In this document: piece after piece, positions 12,484 to 43,486 of the stretch
How positions within the stretch are numbered: position 1 is the first letter of the stretch
Layout of the letters: every line of letters begins with the position of its first letter
The notes under the pieces: model-generated
Databases searched by the model: none
Seen by the model: only the letters and a program-made list of their open reading frames with translations
What the model was told of the DNA's origin: nothing
Program-made: the position numbers and the translations under genes
NCBI GenBank assembly: GCA_964538615.1
Contig: CAZIGK010000006.1
Span: 3,935 to 67,934, forward strand
Origin: an uncultured Rickettsiales bacterium
GTDB lineage: Bacteria > Pseudomonadota > Alphaproteobacteria > Rickettsiales > RI-342
Length of the DNA stretch: 64,000 nt
Direction: 5' to 3'

Positions 12484-13299
12484 ATGACCCAACAGCTTTC
12501 CCCCACTCTTACCGTCATGCTGGCCGCCGCTGAAAAAGCGGGTAAACGTCTGGTGCGTGATTTTCACGAAGTTGAAAACCTGCAAGTCTCCCGCAAAGGC
12601 CCACGGGACTATGTCTCCAATGCAGACTTGCAGGCAGAAGAAACCCTGGTGACAGAACTGTCCAAAGCCCGCCCCGGCTACGGCTATCTACTGGAAGAAG
12701 GGGGAGAAGTGCCCGGCACCAACCCAGAGTTCCGCTGGATTATTGACCCGTTGGATGGCACAGGCAATTTCCTGCATGGCATTCCGCATTTCTGTATCTC
12801 TATCGCGCTGGAACAACGCACAGACAAACATACAGACATCATCGCAGGGCTGATTTTCAACCCCCTCACGCGGGATGCCTTCACCGCAGAGCGTAAAGGC
12901 GGTGCCTATCTGAATGGTAAGCGCATTAAAGTTTCCAGCCGCAAAGAAATTTCAGATGCGCTCATGGCTACAGGTAACTCGTCCCTGCGCACCACCGACG
13001 CACGCTACCGCAACCTCACCAGCGTCTATTCCGCTCATGTCTATGGTTTGCGTTCTCTGGGAGCTGCTGCGCTGGATCTGGCCTATGTCGCCTCCGGTAA
13101 ACTGGACGGTTTCTGGCAAATGGGACTCAAGCCATGGGATATCGCCGCTGGCACATTATTGGTAAAAGAAGCAGGCGGTTACGTTTTAGAACTGAATCGT
13201 CAACCAAATTTTATCGAAACCGGGGATATTCTGGCCTGCAATAATCTACTGGCCCCGAAACTGGAGAAACTTCTCTCCGAGGCGTATAAAGCCGCCTGA
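12484..13299 (+). CDS. suhB: Inositol monophosphatase family protein (SuhB-like)
   Basis: IMPase motifs WIIDPLDGTGNFLHG and WDIAAG; 271 aa. Confidence 0.85.
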   Translation: MTQQLSPTLTVMLAAAEKAGKRLVRDFHEVENLQVSRKGPRDYVSNADLQAEETLVTELSKARPGYGYLLEEGGEVPGTNPEFRWIIDPLDGTGNFLHGIPHFCISIALEQRTDKHTDIIAGLIFNPLTRDAFTAERKGGAYLNGKRIKVSSRKEISDALMATGNSSLRTTDARYRNLTSVYSAHVYGLRSLGAAALDLAYVASGKLDGFWQMGLKPWDIAAGTLLVKEAGGYVLELNRQPNFIETGDILACNNLLAPKLEKLLSEAYKAA

Positions 13300-13343: not shown

Positions 13344-14783
13344 ATGACCCGTTCTCTTTTCCGTGCATACTCCCTTGGCACCTGCCTTACCCTTACTTTG
13401 CTGGCGTTGTCCACCACGGGTGCGCGTGCCGCCACCAGCATGCAGGCTCCCCTGCCGGACGTGGAAATGCACCTGGATGTGCTGGATCGTTATCGCACGC
13501 CGGAAAGTGAACCGGTCCCCTATCCGGATAGCTACCGCTACCAGCCTCGCCCAAATGTTTGGCAAGCCCCATCGTTTCAGGTAGAAGAGCCAACCCAACA
13601 TCAGGGCGGCCCTATCATCATCAAACGTCGCCCCAGTGCAAACCCAACCCCTGCGGCCACTCCTAAAGCATCCCCAACGGTTGCACCTTCCTATGCGCCT
13701 GCGGTACCCACAAAAACCGCCCCCACCAAACCACTGCCTGCTAAAGCGGCCAGCAAACCCAATCCGGCAGCCAGCCGTCCGGCGGCACCGCCGCCCCCTC
13801 CACCCGCTACAAGCGTCAAAACCACCCCACCGCCAGCCGCCCAATCAACGGAGCTACCACCGCTACCACCCAGCGCCCCCGTGACCGTTGATTTACCCGC
13901 CGCTCCCCCAATGCCTCCCGCAGGCAGCACTGACAGCCATCGTCTTCCGCCGCTCCCACCGTCCGGCAATCATTCTGGCAAAGAGCTTCCGGCACTCCCT
14001 CCCAAGCCCTCTGATGCTTCTGCCGCTCCCGTGGTGGTACCGGTTCCGGGCAATGCGCCTGCTGCTGCCCCCACACCAACTCCTGCCCCCACACCTGCTC
14101 CCGCCCCCACACCTGCTCCTGCTGCGGATCCTGCTCCTGCTCCTGCTGCGGCTCCTGCTCCTGCTGCGGCTCCTGCACCAGCAGCACCCAGCAGCAAGAC
14201 CCTATCCATGCCCACCCTGCCGGATGAGCCCGCAGGCACCGGAGAGCCTGACCTCCCCCCACCCGCCGTCCCCGCACGTGATGGCAAAGTCATGCCTACC
14301 CTCCCCCCACCTGCGGATGGTGAAGAACTACCAGAGCTACCCCCCCTACCGGGCAAGGGTGAACCTTTGGCCCTACCCGCCCCTCCCTCTGCGGCACCCG
14401 GTGAGTTAGGCAATATCACGCCACCCGAGTTGCAAACCAAACCCATGATCGTGGCGGATTCCCCCCCAACGCCAACCCGCCTGCCCCGGCTGGAAATTGG
14501 CTTCACTAAATCAGAGACTGCTGTCCCCCTGAGTGAAGAAAAAGTCCTCAATGGTGCCGCCGCGACCTATAAAAAAGTCTTCGCCAAAAACATGACACTG
14601 GTTGGCTATGCCACCAGCCCGAAAGATCAATCCAGCGAGGCCCTAACCGTTGCCCAAAGCCGCGCCAGCGCGGTGAAAGATTATCTGGTGAAACAAGGCA
14701 TTGCCGCCAACGACATCACGGTGGAAAGCAAAACCCTCCCCAGTGGCACCCCGCAGGCGGATAAAGTCGAAATCTTTTTCTAG
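13344..14783 (+). CDS. OmpA-like C-terminal domain protein with a long Pro/Ala-rich region
   Basis: Signal peptide (…LALSTTGARAAT), about 330 aa of P/A/T/S low complexity, and a C-terminal OmpA-like segment (GYATSPKDQSSEALTVAQSRASAVKDYLVKQGIAANDI). Confidence 0.7.
   Translation: MTRSLFRAYSLGTCLTLTLLALSTTGARAATSMQAPLPDVEMHLDVLDRYRTPESEPVPYPDSYRYQPRPNVWQAPSFQVEEPTQHQGGPIIIKRRPSANPTPAATPKASPTVAPSYAPAVPTKTAPTKPLPAKAASKPNPAASRPAAPPPPPPATSVKTTPPPAAQSTELPPLPPSAPVTVDLPAAPPMPPAGSTDSHRLPPLPPSGNHSGKELPALPPKPSDASAAPVVVPVPGNAPAAAPTPTPAPTPAPAPTPAPAADPAPAPAAAPAPAAAPAPAAPSSKTLSMPTLPDEPAGTGEPDLPPPAVPARDGKVMPTLPPPADGEELPELPPLPGKGEPLALPAPPSAAPGELGNITPPELQTKPMIVADSPPTPTRLPRLEIGFTKSETAVPLSEEKVLNGAAATYKKVFAKNMTLVGYATSPKDQSSEALTVAQSRASAVKDYLVKQGIAANDITVESKTLPSGTPQADKVEIFF
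14055..14192 (+). repeat. Tandem degenerate Pro-Ala coding repeat inside the OmpA-like gene
   Basis: The DNA repeats units such as CCCCCACACCTGCTCC and GCTCCTGCTCCTGCTGCGG, encoding [41 protein letters not shown]. Confidence 0.6.
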
Positions 14784-15143: not shown

Positions 15144-17462
15144 ATGGCGGCACACACCATCCACTCATCCTCCCCTTACAGTTTCGCTCCAGCATTCGCA
15201 TCACCGGAAGGACAGGCATTGCTTTCGCAACTAGCGGCCTATGGCCTGTCTCCCGCCCCCTATCCCATGCTATCGCCAGCCCCCCTCGCTTCGGATAGCC
15301 TGACCCGCGCCAAAGAACTGGCTGATGTGCAAATGGCCTACATGCGCCGCTTCACACCGTGGAAAGCACAGCATGTCGAAGAAGTGGCCGCCATGTATGT
15401 CCACCGCATGCACGCACTCGCTCTGGCGCAAGGCATTCCCGTGGGCGCAGAAGACCAGGAACGCTGGCACTATACAGGACTACTGCATGATATTGGCCAA
15501 ACGGTGAATGGACTGCGCGCCCATCTGGAAGATGCCCCCGTCTTCGTGGAACTGAAACGCCAATGGCGGGCGTTGCTGGAACCCCATGCACGCTGGCAAA
15601 AACTGCTTGTACCTGAACTCAACCGCCCTTACCTCTCACTGGAAGAGGCCATTGAAGATGCCAGCCTGCGTTACATCACAGGCATGTATTTCCTGCCGGA
15701 TGAGCTGAATACATTACTCAACAGCAGGCCGGACATCAAAGAGAAGATGTATGACATGCGCCGACATTGGGATGCCGATCACGTATTCTCGCTCATCCAG
15801 CTCCATGAATCCACGCTGTTGGATGATCTGCTCATCACCCCTTCTCTGCATCATGTCAGCTTTGGTGATGGCTCAACCACCATGGCCAGCGCCTATCCGT
15901 TTCAGGCAGAAACCGTAACCCGCCAGACTATTTCCTACAGCCAGTGGCTCTTCAGCCTGTTGGATCGCCTGCAAGCCGCCAGCATGAACCAGCAAAGCCT
16001 CACCAGCATGCTGGTCAATTACAGTGTCGGTTTTGACCACCCGTATTTTGGCGTCCACCCTTCTCTGCTACGGGAATCATTAGAACAAGGCTGGTTGTTG
16101 ACTCTGGCCGAGCACTATTTCAGCCCACGCCTGGGTTCCAACCTACAGCCAGAGCTAACAGAACCCATGGGTTGGTTGCTCCACATGTTGGATATCCCTC
16201 CCGGCGTCAATGATGCTCATGCTTGGGTCATTTCGCAGGAAGCACAAAATCTTCCCCTCAAACCCCAACCGGAATCCGGGCTGGATATAGAGCATTACCG
16301 CCGTGGTCAGGCTATTCTGGCACAACGTAGCTGGAGTAATCAACCCTTCTGCCCTCATTGGCAAGCCTTCTGGGAAGCGGTCTCCAATAATATCCCTCTA
16401 CAGGATTATGTGATTGCGCGCGCCCACAAAGCAGAGCAGCGCAGCCATCGGGAAGGCCGCACGCCCTTAGGGGGAGATGCTGAACTCACCCGCCTGCGCC
16501 AGCTCTCCCCTGCGGAACCCATGCTCCACTCCGATACTGTGCTTGCCCAATCTATCCGGCGGGAAAACGCACGTATCCACCACCAGCAACCTCCTCGCCC
16601 AGACTGGCAGGAGATTCCGGTGACCGAGCTACTCACCATGGCGCGCGAAGCAGGCAAGCAAATGCTGGATACCTCCATCCCACTGCAAACCGAAACCAAG
16701 CCCGATCAATCCATTGTCACCAACGTGGATAAAGCCCTAAACCATTGGTGCATCCAGCAACTTCAACACCTCACCCCACATATCCCTGTCATTGCGGAAG
16801 AAAGCCTGCCGGAAACAAACCGCGCCATTGCCGCCCAACACGCCACCTTCTGGGTGATAGACCCGGTTGATGGCACTAGCCAATATCATCGCTGGCGACA
16901 AGGGGATCTCAGCGCGGATGGCTTCAGCATCAATATTGCCTTGGTCAGCCACGGAGAGCCCGTGTTTGGGGTGACCTATTTTCCTGCCAAAGGCCTGCTT
17001 TATTATAATGATGCAGAAGGGGCATGGAAACAACAGGACGGACAACCCGCCAATCCTCTCGCTCCCTCCCCTCTGCGCTACATGGAAACCGTGCAAACCT
17101 CTGCCCACCCACAGGAAATTGCCAACCTGCTGCTGGATATGCCCACCTCCCGCCATAGCCAGAACCAGCCCATGACCGCCCAGCTTCGTAGTCTGGAAGC
17201 CGCAGCCGGCAATCATCATGTCGGTTACGGTTCGGCAGGTTTCAAATGGTGGGATACTGCCTCGGTACATGCCGTCCTCAAAGCGGTGGGCGGCACCATG
17301 ATTACCCCCCATAATGGGGAAGAACTGCGCTACCCGCAAGGCGGTGACCCCAACGCCGGACAACCCCCGCACGTCAGTGGTCTGGAAGCCACGTTGCGCC
17401 AGCTTGGGCTAACCGGTCTGCTGCATCGCGCAGCGCCATCCGCCGCACAGCTACGCAGCTAG
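15144..17462 (+). CDS. Fusion protein: N-terminal HD-domain region, about 350 aa of unknown sequence, and a C-terminal CysQ/IMPase-type phosphatase
   Basis: HD signature HVEEVAAMYVHRMHALALAQG...YTGLLHDIGQ (HD codons at 15486-15491). The C-terminal roughly 280 aa carry CysQ-like blocks: LTPHIPVIAEES, FWVIDPVDGT (16860), FSINIALVSHGEPVFGVTYFPA, WWDTASVHAV. Confidence 0.6.
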   Translation: MAAHTIHSSSPYSFAPAFASPEGQALLSQLAAYGLSPAPYPMLSPAPLASDSLTRAKELADVQMAYMRRFTPWKAQHVEEVAAMYVHRMHALALAQGIPVGAEDQERWHYTGLLHDIGQTVNGLRAHLEDAPVFVELKRQWRALLEPHARWQKLLVPELNRPYLSLEEAIEDASLRYITGMYFLPDELNTLLNSRPDIKEKMYDMRRHWDADHVFSLIQLHESTLLDDLLITPSLHHVSFGDGSTTMASAYPFQAETVTRQTISYSQWLFSLLDRLQAASMNQQSLTSMLVNYSVGFDHPYFGVHPSLLRESLEQGWLLTLAEHYFSPRLGSNLQPELTEPMGWLLHMLDIPPGVNDAHAWVISQEAQNLPLKPQPESGLDIEHYRRGQAILAQRSWSNQPFCPHWQAFWEAVSNNIPLQDYVIARAHKAEQRSHREGRTPLGGDAELTRLRQLSPAEPMLHSDTVLAQSIRRENARIHHQQPPRPDWQEIPVTELLTMAREAGKQMLDTSIPLQTETKPDQSIVTNVDKALNHWCIQQLQHLTPHIPVIAEESLPETNRAIAAQHATFWVIDPVDGTSQYHRWRQGDLSADGFSINIALVSHGEPVFGVTYFPAKGLLYYNDAEGAWKQQDGQPANPLAPSPLRYMETVQTSAHPQEIANLLLDMPTSRHSQNQPMTAQLRSLEAAAGNHHVGYGSAGFKWWDTASVHAVLKAVGGTMITPHNGEELRYPQGGDPNAGQPPHVSGLEATLRQLGLTGLLHRAAPSAAQLRS

Positions 17463-17489: not shown

Positions 17490-18785
17490 TTATCCGTAAA
17501 TCGGAAAAGCCTTGCACAGCTTTTCCACTTCCGCCCGCACCCGCGCTTCAACGGCGGCATCGCCTGCTTCGTTCGCTGCCAGTGCATCCAGCACATCCGC
17601 AATCAGGTGCGCAATTTTCGTAAACTCTGTCACACCAAAACCACGGGTCGTTCCGGCAGGGGTTCCTAACCGAATACCAGAAGATACCGCTGGCGGTGCC
17701 GGATCAAAAGGAATCGCATTCTTGTTACAGGTCAGCCCCGCACGCTCCAGACCATGCTCTGCGGCTTTACCACTCACCCCTTTGCTACGCAAATCCACCA
17801 ACACCATGTGGCAATCCGTTCCGCCGGAGACAATACCCACTCCGCGCTCCTGCAAGGTGGCGCTCAGGGCGCGGGCATTATCCAGCACCGCCTGTGCGTA
17901 GGCTTTAAAACCGGGTTGCAGCGCCTCACCAAATGCCACGGCTTTTGCCGCAATCACATGCATCAAAGGCCCACCCTGTAGTCCGGGAAACACCGCAGAA
18001 TTCAACTTTTTCGCATAGTCTTCCCGGTCGGTCAGAATCAACCCACCCCGCGGCCCGCGCAGGGTTTTATGCGTGGTGGTCGTCACCACATCCGCATAGG
18101 GTAGCGGGGTCGGGTAAATGCCTGCTGCCACCAATCCGGCATAATGTGCCATATCCACCCACAAAATCGCGCCCACCTTGTCCGCAATCTCACGGAACCG
18201 GGCAAAGTCAATCACCCGTGAATAGGCGGAAGCCCCGGCAATAATCATGGTGGGTTTATGTTCTACTGCCAGCTTTTCCACTGCATCATAATCAATCAGC
18301 CCATCGGCTTCACGTACGCCATATTGCACAATGTTATACCATTTGCCGGAAAGGGTCGGCTTGGCACCATGGGTCAGGTGTCCACCCGCTGCCAGAGACA
18401 TCCCCAACACTGTATCTCCCGGTTTGGTAAAGGCCAGATACACGGCCTGGTTCGCCTGCGCACCGGAATGCGGCTGTACGTTGGCATAACAGCAGTTAAA
18501 CAGCTTTTTAGCACGCTCTATCGCCAGCACTTCGGCCTTGTCCACTTCTTCGCACCCACCATAGTAACGGGCATGCGGGTAGCCTTCCGCGTATTTATTG
18601 GTCAGCACGGAACCCTGCGCTTCCAGCACGGCGCGGCTGACAATATTTTCGGAGGCAATCAGCTCAATCTGGCTCTGTTGCCGATGCAGCTCACCTTTCA
18701 GGGCAGCGGCCAATTCCGGGTCAGCCTGTTGAACAGACTGGTTAAAAAATCCATGGGGGGCAAAGGCGTGGGCAGTCGCGGTCAT
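17490..18785 (-). CDS. glyA: Serine hydroxymethyltransferase
   Basis: 431 aa; PLP-lysine motif [14 protein letters not shown]; family-typical throughout. Confidence 0.95.
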
Positions 18786-18817: not shown

Positions 18818-19279
18818 TCAAAGTTTTTCAATTTTTGCAAGTCGCGCTTCGTGCCGTCCGCCGTCAAATGGGGTCGCCAGAAACGCATCCACGCAGGCAA
18901 TATGCGTGGTGAGATCTTCCCGTCTGGCAGCCAGACATAATACATTCGCATGGTTATGCTGACGAGTGAGAGCCGCGGTTGCAGCATCATGCACCAGTGC
19001 CGCCCGAATCCCTGCATGGCGGTTCGCTGCGATACTCATACCAATACCCGATCCACACAGCAATATCCCTGCTGCATTGGGGGTCGCCAGAACCTTCACA
19101 CTCACCGCATGGGCATAATCCGGGTAATCCACGCTTTGTGTATCCGCTGGTCCCAAATCCTGTACATTGATACCATGGCGTAGCAGATGATGCACCAGCT
19201 CAGCCTTACGCTCCACACCCGCATGATCACTGGCAATAAAAACCGTGGCAAAAACAGGGCTGGCGGCGGCATTTTCCAT
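18818..19279 (-). CDS. rpiB: Ribose-5-phosphate isomerase B
   Basis: RpiB/LacAB motifs FIASDHAG and CGSGIGMSIAANR. The start is either 19279 (MENAAAS…) or 19297. Confidence 0.85.
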   Translation of the reverse strand: MENAAASPVFATVFIASDHAGVERKAELVHHLLRHGINVQDLGPADTQSVDYPDYAHAVSVKVLATPNAAGILLCGSGIGMSIAANRHAGIRAALVHDAATAALTRQHNHANVLCLAARREDLTTHIACVDAFLATPFDGGRHEARLAKIEKL

Positions 19280-19475
19280 GCGGAACATCCTTATCATCGG
19301 TCAGGTTTTCCATCGTTACCTGAATCTGCCTCCAGAAACAAGAAAAGATGCGGTTTATCCCCCTTCCCGTCGTCCTCTCCCACCAGAATCATCCCACCAT
19401 TTGAAAAATGGCTTAAGCCTGAGCCATCACTTCCGATATGCTACGGATAAGGTTCACATCACAGGTACTACACGC

Positions 19476-21395
19476 ATGTCCTCTTCTTCTGCTTCACATC
19501 CCGCTCCTATCCGTGTCCTGTTGTTAGGCGGCACCTTTCTCATGGGAGCACTAGAAGACGGGCTCTATTACCCCATCTTCACCCTGCATGATATACTGCT
19601 GGCAGATGCCGCGTTGCATCACTTTGCCCATTGGCGTGCCCACCCTAACGACCCATCCATCATTGCACACATAGAGCAACGCTACGCCGACATGACCGGA
19701 CAACCCATCGCAAACCCCATGCCGCCACAGCTTGACGAAACCAAACTGGCCGCGCTGGAAGCATGGATTTTGGGAGAAGGAGACAGCACCCACCACATTC
19801 CGCCCGGCCTGCTACGGCAAACGTTCACGCGGGAATGGCACCGCACGGCGAAAGGCGAACATCTGCAAGCCAAACATTTCGGTCACTATCTCCTGCAAGC
19901 CGATCGCTATGCCGTGGCGCATCTGTTGGGCATCACACCCACGCCTGCCCTCCCTGCCCGTTGGGGTGGCCATGCCTATGGTCAACAGGCCTTGGAACAA
20001 GCGGTTGCCAATCTGCAACGCCAGCAATTACAGGCATACCCTATTCTGCCGGATGTACTCTACCCCCTCGGTGAGCTGGTAGACAGCCTGAACCTGACCG
20101 ATTCTCCAACACCTCCCGCCACCAGTCCCGATTCCACTGATGCGTCCAACACCCACACCATACGCGCCCTCATCGCAGCGGTACGTGCCTGCCTGCAACG
20201 CGGGGAATATCCACTGGTGATTGGTGGAACCGATACTCTGGAATGGTACGCCAGTGCCGTGGCATTAGCACTGGGTGAGGCATGGCAACAGGCGGGAATG
20301 CTCTTTGTCTCCGCCATGCAGGGTTTCGGCCAGAATCCTCAGCATGTAGCAGGTCTATGGCGCGCCGCAATGCAGGTGCACCAACATCACCCTACCGGTT
20401 GCCATGTTCTGGTAGCGGAGGATGCCTCTGTCCAACGCTGGCACCTGCTGGATGCCGCGCAGCCTTTCACCAAAATATCCGCCGCCGCAGAATGCTGGCA
20501 AGCCTTCCGTCAGGCGGAAAAATCGCCTCTCCACCCGCGCCCATTACCTCACATCGCCACCGTGGAATCCCTTCCCTGGCGCCGTATTTTCCCTCCCCTG
20601 CATGCCGATACCCCGGTGCGGCATGTCATCGGCTGGCTGCAAAGCCTGACCCATCGGCACCTACTCACCCGGCATAACACGCCGGATACATGGCACGGCC
20701 TGTTGCTGGCAGGCATCCCGCGGGAGGCTCTGTCCCACAGCGGCATGGCAGATGCCCTGACCCATGCGTTAGCGCAAGCAGTACAGGCGGGTTTGCAGGT
20801 CAGTCTGTACAATCCCTATCAAGGGCAAGCGCCTTTATGGTCATCTCCCCTGCAACCGGCTCTCTCCCCAAAGGATGCCGCACACTGGCGGAAGATCTGC
20901 CAACGCATCGGCGCCCAGTGGCTGGAAGAAGAAACACTTGCCCACGCCTACTGGCGTTGCTGCTGGACGGAAACCTCTCCCTCCCCCCCATGTTCAGGGG
21001 CGCATACGCCGGGTCAGGCACCATCCTTTCCCGTCGCGTGGGAGCGGTTGGCACTCTATTCCGTACCGCTCATACCGGTCATGCAACAGGCCATAGACTG
21101 GCTGCTGCGGGACGTGCATCTGAAACAACTGGTAGTAGTTGCGCCACCCAGCGGTGTCCTGCCAGAAGTGCTGGCATACCGCCTGCAACAGCACTGGCGG
21201 GACTGGCACCCCCCCAGAGGCAGCCTGCAAGTCACCACGGCCCATGCCGGGCTACAGCAGACCGCTCAACACCCGCATCTGGAAACCACCCACTGGCACA
21301 CGGGTGCGGTTTATGCCCCCGTGCGCGTCTGGCGACAATCGCTCTACGCCTGCTCACGGGGGGATAGCTCTGTCCAACAACTCGTCTCGGAATAA
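19476..21395 (+). CDS. Hypothetical protein with diverged asparaginase-fold motifs
   Basis: The ATG at 19476 (MSSSSASHPAPIRVLLLGGTFLMGA) avoids overlap with rpiB. VLLLGGT (compare TGGTIAG) and PLVIGGTDTLEWYASAVAL (compare HGTDTMEETAYFL; nt 20223) are separated by a roughly 220-aa insert, followed by about 380 aa that I cannot assign. Confidence 0.45.
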   Translation: MSSSSASHPAPIRVLLLGGTFLMGALEDGLYYPIFTLHDILLADAALHHFAHWRAHPNDPSIIAHIEQRYADMTGQPIANPMPPQLDETKLAALEAWILGEGDSTHHIPPGLLRQTFTREWHRTAKGEHLQAKHFGHYLLQADRYAVAHLLGITPTPALPARWGGHAYGQQALEQAVANLQRQQLQAYPILPDVLYPLGELVDSLNLTDSPTPPATSPDSTDASNTHTIRALIAAVRACLQRGEYPLVIGGTDTLEWYASAVALALGEAWQQAGMLFVSAMQGFGQNPQHVAGLWRAAMQVHQHHPTGCHVLVAEDASVQRWHLLDAAQPFTKISAAAECWQAFRQAEKSPLHPRPLPHIATVESLPWRRIFPPLHADTPVRHVIGWLQSLTHRHLLTRHNTPDTWHGLLLAGIPREALSHSGMADALTHALAQAVQAGLQVSLYNPYQGQAPLWSSPLQPALSPKDAAHWRKICQRIGAQWLEEETLAHAYWRCCWTETSPSPPCSGAHTPGQAPSFPVAWERLALYSVPLIPVMQQAIDWLLRDVHLKQLVVVAPPSGVLPEVLAYRLQQHWRDWHPPRGSLQVTTAHAGLQQTAQHPHLETTHWHTGAVYAPVRVWRQSLYACSRGDSSVQQLVSE

Positions 21396-25078: not shown

Positions 25079-26590
25079 TTACCCAAGGGTCAGCAACAGC
25101 CGCCCGCGCTTACGCTTTTGCTCTTCCTGCAAGCGCACATAAGCCAGATTGGCACGGTAAAGCCGTTTTTGCACAGCGTCAGTTGCTAACAATTCGGGTT
25201 CGCTGCTTTCAATCAGCAATCGGTTTTTCCCCAACTGCGGACGGGTACATTCCAGCACCTTCCGGCTACCACCTGAAATCGCGTAGGCCAATGCCCCCAT
25301 CGTGCCCAGAAAAAACCCATAGGCACAGTCTTCCCGCGTACTGCCCAGCGCCTCCAACCGCGACATCGGGTAATCATTCTCAAACCGGAACCGATGAAAC
25401 ACCGTAACAGCCAATAACGCACGCTCCCGGTGACTAATGCCCATGATCGGGGCATGCATAATGCGCATGAAAGCCGCCTCTGCCCGAAACACCGACACAT
25501 CAGGAAACGGCAGGGTCATCAATAAACAGGCTGCAGCCAGCAATCGCTGGTCATTCGGATGATCCGGCTGCAATACGGGCTGCAACCACTCCAGCAATGC
25601 CTCGCCAAACTCCTGATTTCCTTCGTTTTTGTTCAGCATGTCGTTGGCAGCGGCGTGCAGAGGTTCGGCTCCCTGCTCTTCCAGCGACAATAACCGATAC
25701 AACACCCCTTCCCGCACCCCGCAGGACGAAAACATCACCCGCTCCGGCTCAAAATATTTAATCAATTGCTGCAAAATCAAAGCCGCCATGGGCAGAGTAC
25801 GCAAACGTTTACCCGTTACTTCCGGCACATCCGGCAGCATCTCTTCCGGTGTCTTGGAAATACGGCTGGCAAAACGCCGCATCTGCATCGCATCCGCTTC
25901 ATAGGCATGCAAAAGCTTCAAGGGGTAATGCGTCTCATCCATATGCAGCCGCGCCAATGAACGAAAACTCCCCCCCACCAAATACAACTGGCATCCTCTG
26001 GCCTGTTTACGCAGTGGCTTCTGCGTCTCCAGCCATTCTTTAATCCATTCACGGGCACGCCCCCGCTCATTGGCGGATTCATTCATCACCCGCAACACCC
26101 CCAACGGCAAAGAGCAACGCCGCCCAAAACTGCCGTCTCCGTGAATATGCACCAGCTCCAGACTACCTCCCCCCAAATCACAGGCCAACCCTTCGCCCTG
26201 TTGCAAACTGTTATAGGCTCCCTGTGCCGCCAGTTCCGCTTCTTCATTTCCTTCCACTAAGCGGATATGAAATCCGGTCTTACGTTGCACCTGCTCAATA
26301 AATGCCTGCCCATCGTCCGCATCCCGCAGGGCGGCGGTTCCAATCAGCGCCACCTGCTGCACCTGCATAATATCCGTCAGCATGGCAAAACGCTGTAATG
26401 CCGCTAAAGCGCGGATAACCCCTTGCGGGTTTAGCCTGCCCGTGGCAGCCAACCCTTCCCCCAGCGCGCAGAGTACTTTTTCGTTAAATAGTTCCGATGG
26501 CGTGCGCTTAATCCCATCGTACACCACCATCCGCACGGAGTTAGACCCAATATCAATAATGGCCAGCTTGGCATGGTGACGGTCAGTCAC
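25079..26590 (-). CDS. ppx: Exopolyphosphatase (Ppx/GppA family)
   Basis: N-terminal LAIIDIGSNSVRMVVY (ASKHA fold); 503 aa; GTG start overlapping the ppk stop by 8 nt. Confidence 0.85.
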   Translation of the reverse strand: MTDRHHAKLAIIDIGSNSVRMVVYDGIKRTPSELFNEKVLCALGEGLAATGRLNPQGVIRALAALQRFAMLTDIMQVQQVALIGTAALRDADDGQAFIEQVQRKTGFHIRLVEGNEEAELAAQGAYNSLQQGEGLACDLGGGSLELVHIHGDGSFGRRCSLPLGVLRVMNESANERGRAREWIKEWLETQKPLRKQARGCQLYLVGGSFRSLARLHMDETHYPLKLLHAYEADAMQMRRFASRISKTPEEMLPDVPEVTGKRLRTLPMAALILQQLIKYFEPERVMFSSCGVREGVLYRLLSLEEQGAEPLHAAANDMLNKNEGNQEFGEALLEWLQPVLQPDHPNDQRLLAAACLLMTLPFPDVSVFRAEAAFMRIMHAPIMGISHRERALLAVTVFHRFRFENDYPMSRLEALGSTREDCAYGFFLGTMGALAYAISGGSRKVLECTRPQLGKNRLLIESSEPELLATDAVQKRLYRANLAYVRLQEEQKRKRGRLLLTLG

Positions 26591-28799
26591 GGCGCAGCTC
26601 CTCTTTACCTATCGGCTGCTTTTTTGCATTGGGTCGCAATTCTGCCAGTTTTTGTGGTTTACGCAAAGTACGCTTCAGCGCCCGCCCCCGACCGGAAAGG
26701 GAGGGGTTGCGCATAAAATATTCGTGGCTGGAAAATTGCCCAAGCTCTCCCAGTTTGCGCTCATAATGCCCATCCGGCAGCAAAAACCAGCTATGCCGGG
26801 TATCTTCCACCGTTGCCACCATAATCTGCCCGACAATTTGTTCATGCACAGTGGGGTTATCAATCTCCACCATATATTCCACCCGGTGGTCAAAATTGCG
26901 GAACATCCAATCCGCAGAGGAAATAAACACCCGTGACTCCAACGATGGCAAACCATGGCCATTACCAAAACAAAAAATACGGGAATGCTCCAAAAACCGC
27001 CCAATAATGCTTTTAACGGTAATATTCTCGGAAAAACCGGCAATTCCCGGTCGCAACGCACAAATACCGCGCACAATCAACACCACCTGCACCCCGGCCT
27101 GCCCTGCGGCATACAGGGCATCAATCGTCTCCTCATCGGTCAGGGAGTTCATTTTTGCCCATATTTGCGCGGGTCGCCCCGCCTTGGCATGGCTGGTTTC
27201 CATCTCAATGTGGCGTATCAACTCATCCCGCATATGCAAAGGAGACATGGTTATTTTCCGGCACTGCCGGGGTAGTGCATAACCCGTCAGGTAATTAAAC
27301 AGCCGCGCCACCTCCTGACAAATCGTGGCATCGCAGGTAAAATACGAGAGATCAGTATAGACTTTCGCTGTGACCGGATGATAGTTTCCCGTTCCCAAAT
27401 GCGCATAGCTGCGCAAGCCTTCCGGTGTGCGTTGGGTCACCAGCGACATCTTGGCGTGGGTTTTCAACCCCACCACGCCATACACCACCTGCGCCCCGGC
27501 TCTCTCTAAGTCCCGCGCCCATTTCATGTTGGCTTCTTCATCAAACCGGGCACGAATTTCCACAATAGCGGTCACTGCTTTGCCAGCTTCAGCCGCTTCT
27601 ACCAATGCAGCAATAATGGGAGAATCATTGCTGGTACGGTACAAGGTCTGTTTAATGGATAATACATCCGGGTCACGGGCGGCCTGCTGCAAGAACCGCA
27701 CCACCACATCAAAACTTTCAAACGGATGATGCACCACAATATCCTTGGCATAGATAGCCGCCAGACAATCCCCATTAAAATCATTAATACGCTCCGGAAA
27801 GCGAGGAATATACGGCTCAAAGCGTAACTGGCTGCAATGCTCATCCGCCACCAGTTCACTCAGGCTGCGCATATCCATAATCCCATGGCTGACAAACTGC
27901 GCTTCATCCTCAGCATGCAGTTGTCGCACCACATAATCCCGTAAAAAACCGGGCATTTCTGCGTCCACCTGCAACCGTATCACGTGGCCACGCTTACGCT
28001 CTTTCACGGCTTTTTCAAAGCCGCGCACCAAATCATCTGCATCATCCTCAATATCCAGATCACTATCCCGTAAAATACGGAACATTCCTTTCGCCAGTAC
28101 CTCATAGCCGGGGAATAACAGAGGCAGAGAATGGCATACCACCTCTTCCAGTGGAATATATCGGCTCTGTCCATTGCGGCGGGGCAAAGCGATAAAACGG
28201 CTTAGCTTTTGCGGCAGTGGCACCACCGCCAATTGCTGCTTTTTCTGCTCTTGCTCGTGCAGTTCCAAAATCAGCGTCTGGCTCTGGTTCGCTAAAAATG
28301 GAAACGGATGCGCCGGATCCAGCGCAATCGGCGTCAATACCGGAAAGATTTCCTGCTGAAAAAACTTTCCCAGCCATCGCTTCTCCTGCGGTTTCAGGTC
28401 GGCCATGGACAACACAGACAACCCTTCCACCTGAAGTGGCTGACGCAAAATGTTCCACTGCTCTTCCTGCCCTGCCAGCAGACGCATCACTTTCTGGTGA
28501 ATTTTCTCCAACTGTTCGCGGGCGGTCAACCCATCCAGTGACCGTTTATGCAACCCCTCCCGCACCTGATCCCGCAACCCCGCCACCCGCACCATGTAAA
28601 ACTCATCCAGATTGGAGGCAGAGATAGACAAAAACCGCAACCGCTCCAACAGCGGGTGCTCTGGGTTACCTGCCTCCTGTAATACTCGCGTATTAAACTC
28701 CAGCCAGGACAGCTCGCGGTTAAAAAAACGCTCTGCCGGATGCTCAAAATGCTCCAGAATTGTCTTTGCCAGCGTGTGCATACCCATGGAATCGTCCAT
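26583..28799 (-). CDS. ppk: Polyphosphate kinase 1
   Basis: RFFNRELSWLEFNTRVLQEA N-terminal motif and phosphohistidine region GLKTHAKMSLV. The start is uncertain: Met codons at 28799, 28787 and 28781, while the track ORF extends to 28868. Confidence 0.9.
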   Translation of the reverse strand: MDDSMGMHTLAKTILEHFEHPAERFFNRELSWLEFNTRVLQEAGNPEHPLLERLRFLSISASNLDEFYMVRVAGLRDQVREGLHKRSLDGLTAREQLEKIHQKVMRLLAGQEEQWNILRQPLQVEGLSVLSMADLKPQEKRWLGKFFQQEIFPVLTPIALDPAHPFPFLANQSQTLILELHEQEQKKQQLAVVPLPQKLSRFIALPRRNGQSRYIPLEEVVCHSLPLLFPGYEVLAKGMFRILRDSDLDIEDDADDLVRGFEKAVKERKRGHVIRLQVDAEMPGFLRDYVVRQLHAEDEAQFVSHGIMDMRSLSELVADEHCSQLRFEPYIPRFPERINDFNGDCLAAIYAKDIVVHHPFESFDVVVRFLQQAARDPDVLSIKQTLYRTSNDSPIIAALVEAAEAGKAVTAIVEIRARFDEEANMKWARDLERAGAQVVYGVVGLKTHAKMSLVTQRTPEGLRSYAHLGTGNYHPVTAKVYTDLSYFTCDATICQEVARLFNYLTGYALPRQCRKITMSPLHMRDELIRHIEMETSHAKAGRPAQIWAKMNSLTDEETIDALYAAGQAGVQVVLIVRGICALRPGIAGFSENITVKSIIGRFLEHSRIFCFGNGHGLPSLESRVFISSADWMFRNFDHRVEYMVEIDNPTVHEQIVGQIMVATVEDTRHSWFLLPDGHYERKLGELGQFSSHEYFMRNPSLSGRGRALKRTLRKPQKLAELRPNAKKQPIGKEELRRD

Positions 28800-28882
28800 A
28801 CCATACCGGGGAGAAATTGACCCAATAAACAGGAAAGCGTAAAAAGGCAGTAGGCTCTCTCGCTTCATCCTAAGGACGATTC

Positions 28883-29733: not shown

Positions 29734-31185
29734 TTACACCAGACGCTCTTTGCTACCGCTTTCGCGCAATATCGGCAGGTAAACACTAAAGCAGCTTCCC
29801 ACACCAACCGTACTTTCCACGTGCAAAATACCCCGGTGACGCAGCAGAATATGCTTCACAATCGCCAGCCCCAATCCGGTGCCGGTGGCCTTGCGGGTCG
29901 TTGCATTATTCACCCGGTAGAAACGTTCCGTCAAACGGGGCAGATGCTCTTTGGCAATCCCCTCGCCCTGATCATGCACCGATATTTTAATGGCAGGCCC
30001 ACTCAATGTAATTTGCCGATCATGGGGAATACGGCGGGTCAATTCCGCTGTCACCATAATATCCGATCCCGCACGGCCATATTTCACGGCATTGCTCATC
30101 AGGTTCTGTAACACCTGCATCAGTTCGTTTTCTTCTCCCTGCACCAACGGCAACTGATCCGGTATTGCCAACTGAATGTTCATTTCGCGCTTATCCGCCT
30201 GCCACTCGCAATGTTCGCGTGCATTGCGTATCAACTGCAACACATCCACAATGCCTTCCGGCACACTGTTTGCGTTCATTTCAATCTTGGATAAGGACAG
30301 CAAATCATTCACCAACTGCGCCATGCGCTGCGCCTGATCGTGCATAATACCCAAAAACTGCTCCTGTGCTTCCGGGTCATCTTTGGCTGGTCCCTGCAAT
30401 GTCTCAATAAATCCCACCAGCGATGCTAATGGTGTGCGAATTTCATGGCTGGCATTCGCCACGAAATCTGCACGCATCTGCTCGGTACGTTTCAATTCCG
30501 TAATATCATGCATGGTGATAATCACCGCAATCCCTCCGGGAGAACTAATCGGAAAATGGTCAATCCGCGCTCTAAAATACCCCTCAATCGGCGTATTCAG
30601 GTAAAACTCCACATCCTTATCCGCCCCTTCCTCATAGGCCTCCCGCACAGCATTTAACAGTGCTTCATTATCCGCCACCTGTTCCAGTTTTTTATGGGCA
30701 AGACTCTGGCCAAAACATTGCCGTGCGGCGGCGTTGGTGCGCACAATGGTAAACGCACTATCTATCATGATGAGGATATCCGGTATGGAATCCACCAGAA
30801 TCTCCCGCTCATCAATCACCGCTTCCATTTCCTGTTTGCGGCGTTCCCAACTGCGGTGCAGCTTATTCACAGCAGAGGGCAAATCCCCAATCAACAACCG
30901 TAAATCCGGCATTTCCACCCGCCGATCCTGCGAAAGCCCATCCACATAATCGGTCAACGCCACAATGGAAGATAAATAAGGCCGAATCAGAATCGCACAG
31001 GCCATTAGCACCAGCACCGCGCCATATAAACCCGGCAAGACTGGCAAATAACCCATCAGCATAAAGCAGCCCAACATCAACAACGGTGCCGCACCAATAT
31101 ACAACACCGCCTTCAGCAGCATCGGCAGCGGCACAGAACGGCGGTACGGTGAAATCGGTCGGCGGTCAGGTTGCATGAAAAGCAA
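29734..31185 (-). CDS. phoR: PhoR-like sensor histidine kinase
   Basis: Two N-terminal TM segments, a PAS-like region, HisKA DFVANASHEIRTPL, and HATPase motifs (…NAVKYG…, DQGEGI, GTGLGLAIV). Confidence 0.8.
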   Translation of the reverse strand: MLFMQPDRRPISPYRRSVPLPMLLKAVLYIGAAPLLMLGCFMLMGYLPVLPGLYGAVLVLMACAILIRPYLSSIVALTDYVDGLSQDRRVEMPDLRLLIGDLPSAVNKLHRSWERRKQEMEAVIDEREILVDSIPDILIMIDSAFTIVRTNAAARQCFGQSLAHKKLEQVADNEALLNAVREAYEEGADKDVEFYLNTPIEGYFRARIDHFPISSPGGIAVIITMHDITELKRTEQMRADFVANASHEIRTPLASLVGFIETLQGPAKDDPEAQEQFLGIMHDQAQRMAQLVNDLLSLSKIEMNANSVPEGIVDVLQLIRNAREHCEWQADKREMNIQLAIPDQLPLVQGEENELMQVLQNLMSNAVKYGRAGSDIMVTAELTRRIPHDRQITLSGPAIKISVHDQGEGIAKEHLPRLTERFYRVNNATTRKATGTGLGLAIVKHILLRHRGILHVESTVGVGSCFSVYLPILRESGSKERLV

Positions 31186-39395: not shown

Positions 39396-39839
39396 ATGGC
39401 CAAGATTGTCATTGTGGAAGATAATGAGCTGAATCTAAAGCTTTTCAAAGATTTGTTGGAAGCCCATGGGCACGTGACCTTTGAGACGCGCAGTGGGCAT
39501 GATGCCATTCCGTTGATACGCCTGCGTCAGCCGGATTTAGTACTGATGGATATTCAACTGCCGGAGGTATCGGGGCTGGAAATTACTCGCCAAATGAAAG
39601 CGGATGGGCAATTGGCGCATATTCCGGTGATTGCCGTGACCGCCTTTGCCATGCGCGATGATGAAGAAAAAATCATGAAAGCCGGTTGTGAAGGCTATGT
39701 TTCCAAGCCGATTTCCATTGGACCCTTTATTGAACTGGTACATAAGTTTTTAGCGACCGCCGCACAAACATCCACGATGGGTGACAGTGCCACATCTGCC
39801 TCGTCCCATGTGGAAAAACCAGCGGGGAGCCTGAAATGA
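39396..39839 (+). CDS. divK: Single-domain response regulator DivK
   Basis: [26 protein letters not shown]…[15 protein letters not shown]…[26 protein letters not shown] closely matches Caulobacter DivK as I remember it. It has about 20 extra S/T/A-rich residues at the C-terminus, and its stop overlaps the pleD ATG (ATGA). Confidence 0.85.
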
Positions 39840-42800
39840 CCGCGCAGATTCTGGTTGTTGATGACTTAGAGCCAAACGTCAAACTGCTGGAAGCTAAACT
39901 GCAGGCGGAATATTATGACGTGATTACGGCGATGGATGGTTTTCAGGCCATTGAGCAAGCCAAGAAATTTTCCCCGGATATTATTCTGCTGGATGTGATG
40001 ATGCCGCAGATTGACGGGTTTGAAACCTGTCGTCGTCTGAAGGCGGATCCCGCAACTGCACATATTCCGGTCGTCATGGTGACGGCTTTATCTGACCCGT
40101 CCGACAGGATTCAGGGGTTGCAGGCAGGGGCAGATGATTTTATCACCAAGCCGATTAAGGAAGTGCAGCTGCTGGCGCGGGTGCGGTCGCTGGTGCGCAT
40201 TAAAATGCTGATTGATGAATTGCGTCTGCGCGGGGAGACCTCCAGCCAGTTGGCCGGTATTAGCGGAGAGGATCTGGAAGCGCTGATGGATATCACCGGT
40301 GAGCATATTCTGCTGGTGGATGATGATATTGTGCAGAGCCGACAGGTGATTGAATCGCTGGAGCAGCAAGGATTGCTGGTGAGCCATATCTCCGAGCCGG
40401 AAGAATGTGTGGCTGCGGCCATGCAGGGGGAGTATGACATGTTCATTATCTCCACCCAACTGGCGGATATGGATGGTCTGAGGCTGTGTTCGCAATTGCG
40501 TTCCAACGATAAAACACGCTATGTGCCGCAATTGATTATGGTGGATGAGGATGACGAGCGATCCATCATTAAAGGGTTGGAAATGGGGGTGAATGACTAT
40601 TTGGTCAACCCGATTGATTTGAACGAGATGATCTGCCGGGTGCGTACCAACCTGCGGCGTAAAAAATATCAGGACGCATTGAAGAGCAATTACCGCAAAA
40701 GCGTCTCCATGGCGATTACCGACAGCCTGACCGGGCTGTATAACCGTCATTACCTGAATGCCCACCTGGAAAAACTGGTACGTCACGCGCATGATAAATC
40801 CAAACCTCTTGCGTGCCTGATGCTGGATATGGACCATTTCAAATCCGTCAATGATACCTACGGCCATGATGTGGGGGATGAAGTACTGAAGGAGCTTTCC
40901 CGCCGCATTGTTGGGCAGACCCGTTCGTCTAATCTGGTGGCACGCTTTGGCGGGGAAGAATTTGTGGTTCTACTGCCGGGGGCGGATATTACGGTCGCAC
41001 GGGAAATTGCCGAACGGATCAGGCAAGCAGTTGAAATTGTGCCCTTTACCATCAGTCACCCGCAAGGGCCGATTAACAAAACTCTCTCCATTGGGGTAGC
41101 TGCACTGCGCCTGAATGACCCGAAAGATACCGGCGAATCCATGATGAAGCGCGGGGATGAGGCGCTGTATCAGTCCAAGCATCAAGGGCGTAACCGAGTG
41201 ACCATTGCGGAAGATGACGCATTATTATCTTCCAGTTTTTCTGCGGCACATCTGATGGATGAAGAGAAAGAGCAGGCAGCAATGTCTTCTCATGAGCCTA
41301 CTCTGGCACTGGATGAGCAAAACCCGATTTCTTCTGCTTTTACGCCGGGACGCTCCCCGGAGCAGCATCGCGTCGCAAAAACGCAGGATGTGCTGTATCA
41401 GCCCGGTATTATTGAAACCGCTGCCTATGCAGAACATGAGGAAGAAGATGCATCCGCTATGACCGCTTTGTCCGGCTTTTCCTCCCTTGCGGCACCTGCC
41501 CCGGTTCAGCCCTTACAGGGGACACTTTCCCCGCAGGCAACACCGGGTGAAGCACCACTAGCAAGCGGTAGAGAGCCTGTGAATCCGTTTGCGGTTTTGC
41601 CTCCTCCTCCCACAACAACGCCTTCTGTCCGTACAGTGGAAGCAGCCCACGGCTATCGGGCAGACCCGTACGCCAGCTCGGATACAGCCCCCCTTACCCA
41701 GCCACAGAGCAACCTGTTTGGGGTGGGACTGGATGTGCGGGATATTCCGGATACTCCATCCGCTGGCATGTCTTTTTCCTCCCTGCCTGTAGGCACGGAA
41801 GCCTCTACCGCATCGAAAACACTATCAGACGCTATAACCGCCACACCATCCGAAATGGAGCGAGGTGTGCCCTTGCCCTCTACCCCGCCCATGGCTTCAC
41901 CCATTGCTTCATCCACTCTTTCCGGGCAGGCGGAACCTGAGGCAGAGCTGGATGATTGGCCAGCACCAGAGGCGCCTATGGCGTCTGCTGCCTCATCGCT
42001 GCAAGCTGATGATATGGGGTATCTCTCCTCACGTATGCCACGCCCCCGTGAACTGGAGTTTGACACAGAGGATGCGGAACTTACCATGGCACCGGATGAT
42101 GTTGTTCTGGGTATCTCTCCCGCACGGTTCAAAGCGGAGAAGGAAGAGCCTGCCGGATTATTTGGCAAGCTGGTTGGCGGATTATTTGGCCGCAAAAAAC
42201 CAGAAGTGGCAGAAAATCACCCTGTTTCGGCTACCCCTCCACCACGGCCACCGGGAGTACCGACCGCAGACATGGCAATGGTCAGCAAGGCATCCGCTAT
42301 CCCGGTACGTCCGGCATCGGCGGTGACACCTTACACAGCCGATAGTTCTGCGAACCTTGAAGATACAGAGGATGACGGATTTGATCTCTCCCCGCCCTGG
42401 GCCAAAAGCCCCAAAGAAGCGTTGACAAGGCAGGCTGCAACCGCAACAGAACCTACATCCGTATCTTCCACAGAGGCATCACCTGTCGGACACACGCCAG
42501 AAACATCCGTGATAGGAAATGCGGAACCTGCGGTTGCTGCACCGGATGCAGAAACGGTGAACATGCCTGTCCCGCCGCACATACCTGATACAACCGAAGT
42601 GGTAGCTCCTGTCCTGCCGGAGGCTCTGCCCCCCTTGGATGCACACTCCCATCCGGCTATTTCTTCCCCCAGCTTGCCGGAAGCTGCGTCATATACGGCC
42701 ACAGAAAGCCCTATGCCCGCACCCGTAGCGGCCACCGCTCCTCCCCCTCCTCCTACAGCGGTTACTTCTCCCTTTGCCAGCCCGTTTCCATTGACAGAAA

Positions 42801-43486
42801 TGGCACTGGATAACCCGTTCGATACCGAAATACAGCCGCCCTTACGCGAACCTGAAGCTGAAGACATCACGCAGAAGCCAGAGACCACCCGTGATGCCGC
42901 ATTAGATTTTGCCAAAGACTGGGTGTTGGAACTGGATCAGCCGGGAACCGGGGGAGCCGTACCCAATCCATCACCAGAACCGACAGCGTTTACGCCAGCC
43001 GTGGAAACAGTGCATCCACCTACCCTGACACCTGACCCGGCACCTGCCGTGACACCCGCATTATCACCTGCCGTTAGCCCCACTTTGCCGGAAACCCCCG
43101 CAACTGTATCTCCTGTCGAACATCCTGTATCACCATTTGCGCCCCCTCTCCCGGTCGCTGCAACGGCAGAAACTACGCCGATGCATACAGAACCCGCAGC
43201 CGATGCAGGTGCACGGAACCCCTTTACGGTGAGTACCAATACAGCCACACATACCACCCCGAATGGCCTGCTGTTTGGCAGTCAGGTACACGCCCCCGCT
43301 ATTACGGCAGAGCCGCCAGTATCGCCTGTTCAGCCACAAGAGCAGCGTTCCACCCAAGCTCCGGTGAGCAATGTGTTTGGTATTTTGCCCGGTGGTGATG
43401 CGCACAATCCATTTGCGGAATCCGCAGAAGCGTTGGCGCGCCGCGCCGCCAGTTACCATGGAAAACCATCCCATGAAGAGGAATGA
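39836..43486 (+). CDS. pleD: PleD-type diguanylate cyclase (REC-REC-GGDEF) with a roughly 755-aa low-complexity C-terminal extension
   Basis: REC1 has the acceptor Asp (IILLDVMMP). REC2 is a pseudo-receiver ([13 protein letters not shown]). The GGDEF domain has an intact GGEEF (40949-40963). From about aa 462 onward the sequence is P/A/S/T/E-rich, running to the stop at 43484-43486. Confidence 0.8.

Follow-up and report, generated by a model that had tools for sequence, protein, structure and literature searches.

The subject of this analysis is ORF772, a gene in a 64,000-nucleotide stretch of DNA from an uncultured Rickettsiales bacterium (contig CAZIGK010000006.1 of assembly GCA_964538615.1); the whole of this stretch is referred to below as the window. 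ORF772 is a complete, ATG-initiated open reading frame (ORF) on the forward strand (15144..17462) comprising 772 codons plus a stop, and all features of it described here lie on that strand. Its product consists of a low-complexity head (residues 1-60; 15144..15323), a long orphan region (residues 61-490; 15324..16613) containing a short HD-like motif (residues 77-123; 15372..15512), a phosphomonoesterase domain of the IMPase superfamily (FIG) and its CysQ-like branch, supported by Pfam, NCBIfam and PDB matches (residues 495-732; 16626..17339), and a C-terminal tail (residues 733-772; 17340..17459). An earlier reading of the letters, made without database searches and called here the sequence-only reading, had proposed that the gene fuses an HD phosphohydrolase domain to a CysQ-type bisphosphate nucleotidase.

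ORF772 is one real gene, coding in a single frame from end to end. A codon log-odds model trained on 18 conserved genes of the window and scored in 80-codon windows returned 0.14-0.46 bits per codon in frame 0, and negative values in frames 1 and 2, for every 80-codon window of the gene, with the lowest score (0.14, still positive) on residues 1-60 and with GC1/2/3 periodicity uniform along the entire ORF. Across the junction between the orphan region and the phosphatase domain (residues 401-560) the frame-0 signal runs unbroken at 0.23-0.36 bits per codon, and codon usage in the N-terminal part is as good as in suhB (0.37) and efp (0.39). The probability of a 490-codon stop-free run arising by chance upstream of the phosphatase domain is approximately 1e-8 to 8e-8. 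No Shine-Dalgarno (SD)-like sequence was found in front of the internal Met499, and a start at this position would cut off the first part of helix 1, which is kept in the relatives of the domain. Because the coding statistics are continuous, Met499 is not preceded by an SD-like sequence and so long an open run is improbable, a frameshift-type fusion is very unlikely. The sequence-only reading had itself raised the possibility of a sequencing error that fused two genes, and the coding statistics give no sign of this; the single 772-residue ORF that it described is borne out, and all of the peptide strings that it quoted are present. The gene is monocistronic, with a 360-bp gap to an OmpA-like gene upstream (13344-14783), and is convergent with glyA (17490-18785, minus strand), whose end lies 27 bp downstream. 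A weak SD-like sequence (taagg) lies 6-10 nt 5' of the ATG, while consensus scans for a promoter or terminator at the gene revealed nothing above chance.

On the strength of its family matches and aligned residues, the C-terminal third of the protein can be confidently assigned to the IMPase superfamily, with a predicted metal site in which all three motifs are complete. The Pfam family Inositol_P (PF00459) matches residues 500-731 with 99.5 bits against a cutoff of 27 (E = 2.9e-28), spanning profile positions 13-246 of 271. Among NCBIfam models, the highest scores were obtained with the CysQ models TIGR01331 (119.7 bits) and NF008182 (E. coli-type CysQ; 97.7 bits over residues 496-730), ahead of HisN (50.6 bits), SuhB-type (31), FBPase/IMPase (18.9) and HAL2 (17.9). 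The top PDB match of the domain is 3b8b, deposited as 'CysQ' (E = 1e-12). These results agree with the earlier description of the last 280 or so residues as CysQ-like, the IMPase family covering the C-terminal ~240-280 residues. An IMPase fold is predicted for the domain from its homology to IMPases and CysQ proteins of known structure; AlphaFold modelling of the whole of ORF772 from its single sequence gave a predicted local distance difference test score (pLDDT) of only 36.

The nearest relatives of the domain in a database of 5.8 billion clusters (P0003-P0008) are stand-alone proteins of 246-298 residues that are 25-37% identical to it. In an alignment of the ORF772 domain with these CysQ-like relatives and the SuhB paralogue of the window (A1), the three motifs are all retained, as the sequence-only reading had claimed for the metal ligands. 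The metal-binding Glu pair E552-E553 (16797..16802), in the context I-A-E-E, falls in an invariant column. In the 'DPxDxT' metal- and phosphate-binding motif, represented by D573-P-V-D576-G-T578 (16860..16877), the D, P, D, G and T are invariant, and the equivalent DPIDxT motif serves as the metal anchor in the IMPase family (PMC7948987). The third metal-ligand motif consists of W703-D704 followed, after 11 residues, by G716-G717 (17250..17294), and its W and D are again invariant. The same alignment revealed a YPQ in ORF772 where the CysQ-like relatives conserve YNK, a 6-residue insertion after DPVDGT that is absent from the relatives, and a C-terminal tail that reaches ~25-30 residues beyond the stand-alone proteins (columns 301-349 of A1) and matches nothing.

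The chromosomal setting of three of these relatives was inspected. P0004 adjoins genes for an APS (adenosine 5'-phosphosulfate) kinase, a PAPS_reduct-family protein and a sulfate-type symporter, P0003 adjoins a NUDIX gene and P0005 adjoins glycosyltransferase genes; genes typical of cysQ loci flank two of the three. Among the neighbours of all three, nothing resembling the N-terminal part of ORF772 was found, neither an HD gene nor a large orphan. Since the closest relatives are stand-alone proteins in ordinary chromosomal neighbourhoods, the C-terminal domain can be traced back to ordinary cysQ-type genes. A second member of the superfamily lies 1.8 kb upstream of ORF772, as had been noted from the letters: the SuhB/inositol monophosphatase paralogue (12484-13299; Pfam E = 4e-60) is a stand-alone protein of 271 residues in a conserved efp-suhB arrangement. 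It shares the PF00459 superfamily and the catalytic motifs with the ORF772 domain, but the two are only 22% identical in the alignment, and the SuhB-type model that gives 31 bits on ORF772 gives 195.7 bits on the paralogue.

In marked distinction from the C-terminal domain, residues 1-490 are, as far as sequence comparison reaches, an orphan: none of the databases searched yielded a relative of this segment. The low-complexity head is composed of A (22%), S (17%), P (13%) and L (13%), and the region that follows it is predicted to be soluble and mostly alpha-helical and is rich in His. No signal peptide, transmembrane segment or recognisable secretion signal was found in ORF772, in which 19-residue hydropathy peaks at 0.98. 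When 1.84 billion representative proteins were scanned exhaustively with phmmer, the N-terminal region retrieved only ORF772 itself and one further protein (P0002). Word-indexed searches of the 5.8-billion-cluster database, made with the whole of ORF772 and, at E ≤ 10, with residues 60-300 alone, identified no N-terminal relative. Species-representative genome contigs, JGI metagenome contigs and plasmids (tblastn) likewise contained no relative of this region, and no paralogue of it was found among the window proteins. Across 80 glyA loci from alphaproteobacterial species representatives, no relative of ORF772 was located within 10 kb, even when the IMPase domain was included, and the fetched loci (1.4 Mb) contained no credible HD-domain protein. 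The stretch between the two domains originally proposed had been described as lacking a recognisable family, and Pfam scans of it are indeed blank; PADLOC and PHROGs scans, made with the N-terminal region, gave no match either. ORF772 constitutes a singleton cluster with PF00459 as its sole precomputed Pfam domain, and its architecture is not that of a common, annotated family; the sequence-only reading had likewise been aware of no described HD plus CysQ architecture.

P0002, a 1477-residue NTPase/TPR-like repeat protein retrieved with E = 2.4e-8, was considered as a homologue and rejected. A single helical stretch of about 45 residues in ORF772 (residues 126-167; 15519-15644; VELKRQWRALLEPHARWQKLLVPELNRPYLS) pairs with each of the seven or more copies of a ~54-residue TPR-like repeat in P0002, at 28-40% identity per copy, and the reported score is the sum over these repeats. 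The best single alignment reaches 37 bits, which we estimate from the database size to be far from significant there. Since the summed E-value is inflated by the repeats, we regard the match as due to chance; it is the only non-HD resemblance in the N-terminal region. Structure prediction could not arbitrate the N-terminal fold because no homologues were available to it: single-sequence AlphaFold modelling gave a pLDDT of 40 for residues 60-300, with helices seen only at such low confidence here and in the full-length model, and a Foldseek search of the 60-300 model against the PDB returned exclusively matches with E > 1, none of them to an HD protein.

The N-terminal region had been said to carry a textbook HD signature. 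The string is present, with a first His (H77 or H90, with H87 between them) followed by G-L-L-H115-D116-I-G-Q, but the resemblance stays at the level of a motif: none of the profile matches to the string reaches its threshold, and each takes in roughly one third of the model. The Pfam HD family yields E = 0.16 with the full protein and E = 0.026 with a 150-residue piece (12.7-15.2 bits against a cutoff of 22; profile positions 14-48 of 116), the NCBIfam HDIG model (TIGR00277) yields E = 0.012-0.11 (12.4-15.5 bits against a cutoff of 27.6; positions 16-46 of 84), and HDOD yields E = 0.12 (12.3 bits against a cutoff of 22.9). In the PDB, the N-terminal region matches myo-inositol oxygenase (MIOX; 2ibn, 2huo), an HD-fold diiron enzyme, with E = 0.58, or E = 0.016 with a short query chosen post hoc. 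The MIOX alignment extends over 35 residues without gaps and includes 13 identities, but shows no colinearity downstream. It places H90, H115 and D116 of ORF772 on a conserved H, H and D, which we take to be the iron ligands H98, H123 and D124. The Pfam MIOX family is not among the matches of ORF772.

HD phosphohydrolases (PF01966, TIGR00277; PMC8177086) resemble ORF772 in presenting a His followed, 25-38 residues on, by two hydrophobic residues and H-D-I-G in a predicted helical context, yet in ORF772 the remaining elements are not in evidence. The profile alignments stop before the distal HD ligands, at position 48 in HD and 46 in HDIG, and residues 125-300 alone, searched against the PDB at E ≤ 10, matched no HD or MIOX protein, the hits being to WbbM and argonaute at E ~ 1. 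Candidate distal ligands can be proposed by eye only (H213/H221, H236-H237 and D274) and would need an insertion of 60-80 residues. HD phosphatases also conserve an Arg about three residues ahead of the first His (PMC8177086), which is not found in ORF772: K74 precedes H77, and H87 occupies the position three residues before H90, with R88 at -2. In the exhaustive scan of 1.84 billion proteins, no HD protein attained E = 0.001. In addition, the pattern [LIVMF][LIVMF]HD[LIVM]G occurs about four times in 2412 mechanical ORF translations (an estimated ~700,000 residues), in unrelated loci and mostly in spurious-looking ORFs. The profile searches that the sequence-only reading had named as a way of refuting its HD phosphohydrolase domain essentially fail to support it, and AlphaFold gave no usable model by which to judge the fold. 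We consider it unlikely that the N-terminal region has a true HD fold and, by a further step, improbable that it is an active HD hydrolase, and we advise against annotating ORF772 as an HD-domain protein.

The interpretation that we prefer, with slightly better than even confidence, is that ORF772 encodes a CysQ-like phosphatase specific to its lineage, and that this phosphatase carries a large orphan extension, most likely a non-catalytic one. Under this interpretation, a formerly stand-alone cysQ-type gene would have gained, or grown, a 490-residue orphan segment in front of it. Because the complete metal-binding apparatus is kept, the C-terminal domain most likely still hydrolyses a phosphomonoester, and it would be an active, Mg2+-dependent and Li+-sensitive phosphomonoesterase. 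Its ancestral and most probable substrate would be the 3'-phosphate of pAp (3'-phosphoadenosine 5'-phosphate) or of PAPS (3'-phosphoadenosine 5'-phosphosulfate), releasing AMP or APS together with inorganic phosphate. The domain has, however, drifted so far from its relatives that pAp specificity is inferred for ORF772. As blocks conserved around the pocket have changed, a shifted substrate, such as another bisphosphorylated nucleotide or an inositol polyphosphate, is also plausible. The N-terminal extension would be a soluble and probably all-helical segment that regulates, oligomerises or localises the phosphatase.

Several observations weigh against this interpretation, on both sides of the junction. 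ORF772 misses the CysQ equivalog cutoffs, scoring 119.7 bits where TIGR01331 sets 228.8 and 97.7 bits where NF008182 sets 379, that is, about half and a quarter, respectively, of the required values. The CysQ-specific form of the second motif is L-S-E-E, with Ser replacing Gly ahead of the Glu pair (PMC5516325). ORF772 has I-A-E-E in its place; S-E-E is found in five of the six CysQ-like relatives and A-E-E in the remaining one (P0006). Other blocks differ as well, with TSAH for SRSH, TAQLR for GSSLK and GYG for YPR in ORF772 relative to the CysQ-like proteins of the alignment. pAp may thus not be the substrate, or activity could be impaired despite the intact ligands. On the N-terminal side, the weak signals agree with one another better than random noise would: every one of them (HD, HDIG, HDOD and MIOX) comes from the HD clan, and every one maps to a single stretch of about 35 residues. 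This agreement is the strongest point in favour of an HD fold that is genuine though very divergent. The 24 His in residues 61-490 are compatible with a metal site, and the pattern observed is just what would be expected of an HD fold that had diverged strongly and taken up large insertions. The gene is, moreover, known from one sequence on one contig alone. With respect to the C-terminal domain, the outcome is a change of rank: among subfamilies CysQ scores best, and the protein would work in the manner of a CysQ-type nucleotidase, yet the equivalog tests failed, LSEE is missing and several conserved blocks are altered, and for this reason the domain should be filed, on present sequence comparisons, as 'IMPase superfamily, CysQ-like branch' and not as CysQ.

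ORF772 lies among housekeeping genes, with thiE, efp and suhB upstream and glyA and rpiB downstream. Within the 64-kb window we found neither sulfate-assimilation genes nor a further cysQ, nor any protein recognisable as HD, and there was no rRNA, tRNA or Rfam match. GlyA shares at most 72% identity with its counterparts in 185,579 species representatives, of which Rhodospirillales metagenome-assembled genomes (MAGs) and Thalassospira match it best, and at 90% identity none of GlyA, EF-P, SuhB and Icd clusters with any other of 15 billion proteins. Only the adjacency of rpiB and glyA is conserved, and it is kept in five of the 80 fetched glyA loci (L001, L003, L008, L010 and L019), all from Rhodospirillales or other alphaproteobacterial MAGs, with rpiB products 36-47% identical to that of the window; in these five loci, neither ORF772, nor a 716-residue orphan that follows in the window, nor suhB or efp was found near glyA. 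Judging from these proteins, the source is an isolated alphaproteobacterial lineage without a close sequenced relative, and this isolation largely explains the orphan character of ORF772.

The load of large lineage-specific proteins in this genome is unusually high. ORFs without a Pfam match at E ≤ 0.001 include those at 94-2583 (+; 829 residues), 45794-47365 (-; 523 residues), 51482-52981 (-; 499 residues) and 60381-62084 (-; 567 residues); the 829- and 523-residue ORFs have coding-like codon log-odds of 0.26 and 0.41, respectively, and the latter is a singleton in the 15-billion-protein collection. The 716-residue ORF mentioned above (19245-21395, +) belongs to no family, with a sub-threshold match to the Asparaginase N-terminal family at residues 296-391 (E = 0.043). 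Its true start probably lies further downstream: the ORF as called opens with a GTG that runs into the divergent rpiB at the 5' end of that gene, and this exact sequence is missing from the protein collection. Large lineage-specific sequences being normal in this genome, an orphan extension on ORF772 is less surprising than one from a well-sampled clade. A protein of 1216 residues encoded at 39836-43486 (+) carries two receiver domains and a GGDEF diguanylate cyclase domain in its first ~455 residues, followed by ~760 residues without a family, and in its domain matches it repeats the pattern of ORF772, a known module joined to a large orphan region.

Other genes of the window are of varied character. 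The OmpA-like gene directly upstream of ORF772 (13344-14783, +) encodes a Pro/Ala-rich protein of 479 residues with long low-complexity tracts of a ten-residue type, where local GC content climbs to 0.67, and with an OmpA-like peptidoglycan-binding domain (E = 6e-7) at its C-terminus. Adjacent, slightly overlapping genes for polyphosphate kinase 1 (ppk; 761 residues) and a Ppx/GppA protein (ppx; 503 residues) lie at 25079-28868 (-). Two members of the histidine phosphatase superfamily (branch 1) are encoded at 53136-54296 (+) and 61930-63018 (-), one matched with E = 5e-20 and one marginally with E = 8e-4; with its LMW-PTP, PAP2, GDPD and NUDIX-like genes, the window thus has a notable number of phosphatases and phosphoesterases. 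A PAS histidine kinase is encoded at 29734-31185 (-), and a 647-residue ankyrin-repeat protein (Ank_2, E = 2e-15) with unannotated flanks at 54316-56259 (-). Ankyrin proteins are typical of host-associated bacteria, and this one hints that the isolated alphaproteobacterium may live with a eukaryote.

Alternative explanations of ORF772 differ mainly in what they make of the N-terminal segment. One of them, in our view doubtful, is that residues ~70-300 form a highly divergent HD enzyme, a metal-dependent phosphohydrolase or phosphodiesterase in which large insertions separate the HD dyad from the distal ligands, and that this enzyme acts in sequence with the CysQ-like domain on pAp, pGpG/nanoRNA or (p)ppGpp-type compounds. 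HD-clan models do provide the only database signals for this region, the ungapped MIOX alignment superimposes H90, H115 and D116 on conserved residues, the candidate distal ligands occur in the right order and the low-confidence models surround the motif with helices, which an all-alpha HD fold would need; HD domains are also known to tolerate insertions and to fuse to other catalytic domains (PMC8177086). These points are set against matches that all lie below curated cutoffs and end within the first part of the model, 176 downstream residues that match no HD or MIOX protein, an exhaustive protein scan without an HD protein at E 0.001, the absent Arg, the ~60-80-residue insertion demanded by the spacing from HD to HH, a hexapeptide pattern that is appreciably frequent by chance, and a negative Rosetta-stone check, in that no separate HD gene stands beside related cysQ genes. 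For the idea of the sequence-only reading that two phosphohydrolase domains process a phosphorylated nucleotide one after the other, the motif is the only positive evidence. A little more doubtful still is the strongest version of this idea, in which ORF772 would be the first two-headed HD and CysQ phosphohydrolase, its HD part, interrupted by the ~60-80-residue insertion, cleaving a phosphodiester or pyrophosphate in a nucleotide (for example pGpG/nanoRNA, a (p)ppGpp-like compound or a dinucleotide) and its CysQ-like part then removing the 3'-phosphate that is left, or else a MIOX-like variant of such an enzyme. The specific proposal of a MIOX-like diiron oxygenase fused to an inositol-phosphate phosphatase, which would convert inositol phosphate to myo-inositol and then to D-glucuronate, is extremely improbable: no PDB entry matches the N-terminal region better than MIOX, and the match runs without gaps over the conserved H/H/D, but the E-value with an unbiased query is 0.58, the match does not extend into residues 125-300, Pfam MIOX is not matched, and the C-terminal domain is nearer to CysQ than to inositol monophosphatases.

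The two remaining explanations concern the role and the integrity of the gene. ORF772 could encode a secreted or host-directed effector, with an N-terminal targeting or interaction module and an IMPase-fold domain acting on host inositol polyphosphates or host pAp instead of in the sulfur metabolism of the bacterium. The ankyrin-repeat protein and the many large orphan ORFs of the window, both frequent in host-associated bacteria, would fit such a role, as would the altered CysQ-typical pocket blocks, the unique N- and C-terminal extensions and the absence of sulfate-assimilation genes within 64 kb. We nevertheless judge it a poor candidate, since no signal peptide or recognisable secretion signal and no adjacent secretion-system genes were found, the neighbourhood is one of housekeeping genes (thiE, efp, suhB, glyA and rpiB), the window looks like part of a metabolically complete, free-living genome (ppk, ppx, acs, a BCCT transporter and thiG), and host association rests on one ankyrin protein. 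Very unlikely, finally, is an artefact or a decaying gene, whether two in-frame genes merged by a sequencing or assembly error or by recent stop loss, or an extension that is untranslated, with the true start near Met499. A single genome and a single contig represent the lineage and offer no cross-check, a single miscalled stop codon could join two genes, the relatives of the C-terminal domain are all stand-alone, and Met499 sits roughly where they begin in the alignment; against this stand the unbroken frame-0 signal over the junction, with negative values in the other frames, the improbability of so long an open frame, the lack of an SD-like sequence and the loss of part of helix 1 at Met499, and N-terminal codon usage of the quality seen in suhB and efp. 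A CysQ-like phosphatase carrying a probably non-catalytic orphan extension accordingly remains the interpretation that we prefer.

Compared with known systems, ORF772 is closest to CysQ (TIGR01331/NF008182; PDB 3b8b), the best-scoring subfamily for residues 495-732, with which it shares the metal motifs EE, DPxDGT and WD-x11-GG. It departs from CysQ in its equivalog scores, in a 490-residue N-terminal extension that none of the other family members retrieved here possesses and in a tail that is longer by ~30 residues, and, whereas some CysQ relatives lie beside sulfate-assimilation genes, ORF772 has no cys genes nearby. The fusion of an IMPase-family domain to a second catalytic domain has a precedent in the archaeal NADP phosphatase/NAD kinase (NF010678), and the combination of pAp turnover with another nucleotide activity in one protein is known from the DHH-family nanoRNase/pAp phosphatase NrnA (PMC8268124). 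In both of these the partner domain is recognisable (NAD kinase and DHH/DHHA1, respectively), whereas ORF772 has an orphan in that place, of no established fold or activity. Three families account for the known pAp phosphatases, namely FIG (CysQ), DHH (NrnA) and PHP/amidohydrolase, and for E. coli CysQ a Km of ~1 uM is quoted (PMC8268124). Fusions of HD domains to other catalytic or sensory domains are common (PMC8177086); the literature searched describes no fusion of HD with IMPase or CysQ and no HD-type pAp phosphatase.

What is new in ORF772 is modest: an old CysQ-like enzyme domain with a unique and very large orphan extension. The joining of a known enzyme domain to ~490 residues without a relative among ~15 billion proteins makes the gene a case for the recruitment of orphan sequence, and it is at the same time a warning against domain calls from short motifs. 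If the HD-like motif were a real metal site, ORF772 would be the first two-headed HD/CysQ phosphohydrolase, its domain architecture would be new, and it would be the only member so far of a new HD subfamily. It would then suggest a coupled way of clearing nucleotides of the pAp or nanoRNA kind, which are inhibitors of oligoribonuclease, of PAPS-dependent enzymes and of RNases of the XRN type (PMC8268124); a MIOX-like variant would instead couple the dephosphorylation of inositol phosphate to oxidative ring cleavage. Independently of the N-terminal region, the altered pocket residues make the CysQ-like domain of ORF772 a candidate for a new specificity in the lithium-sensitive phosphatase family.

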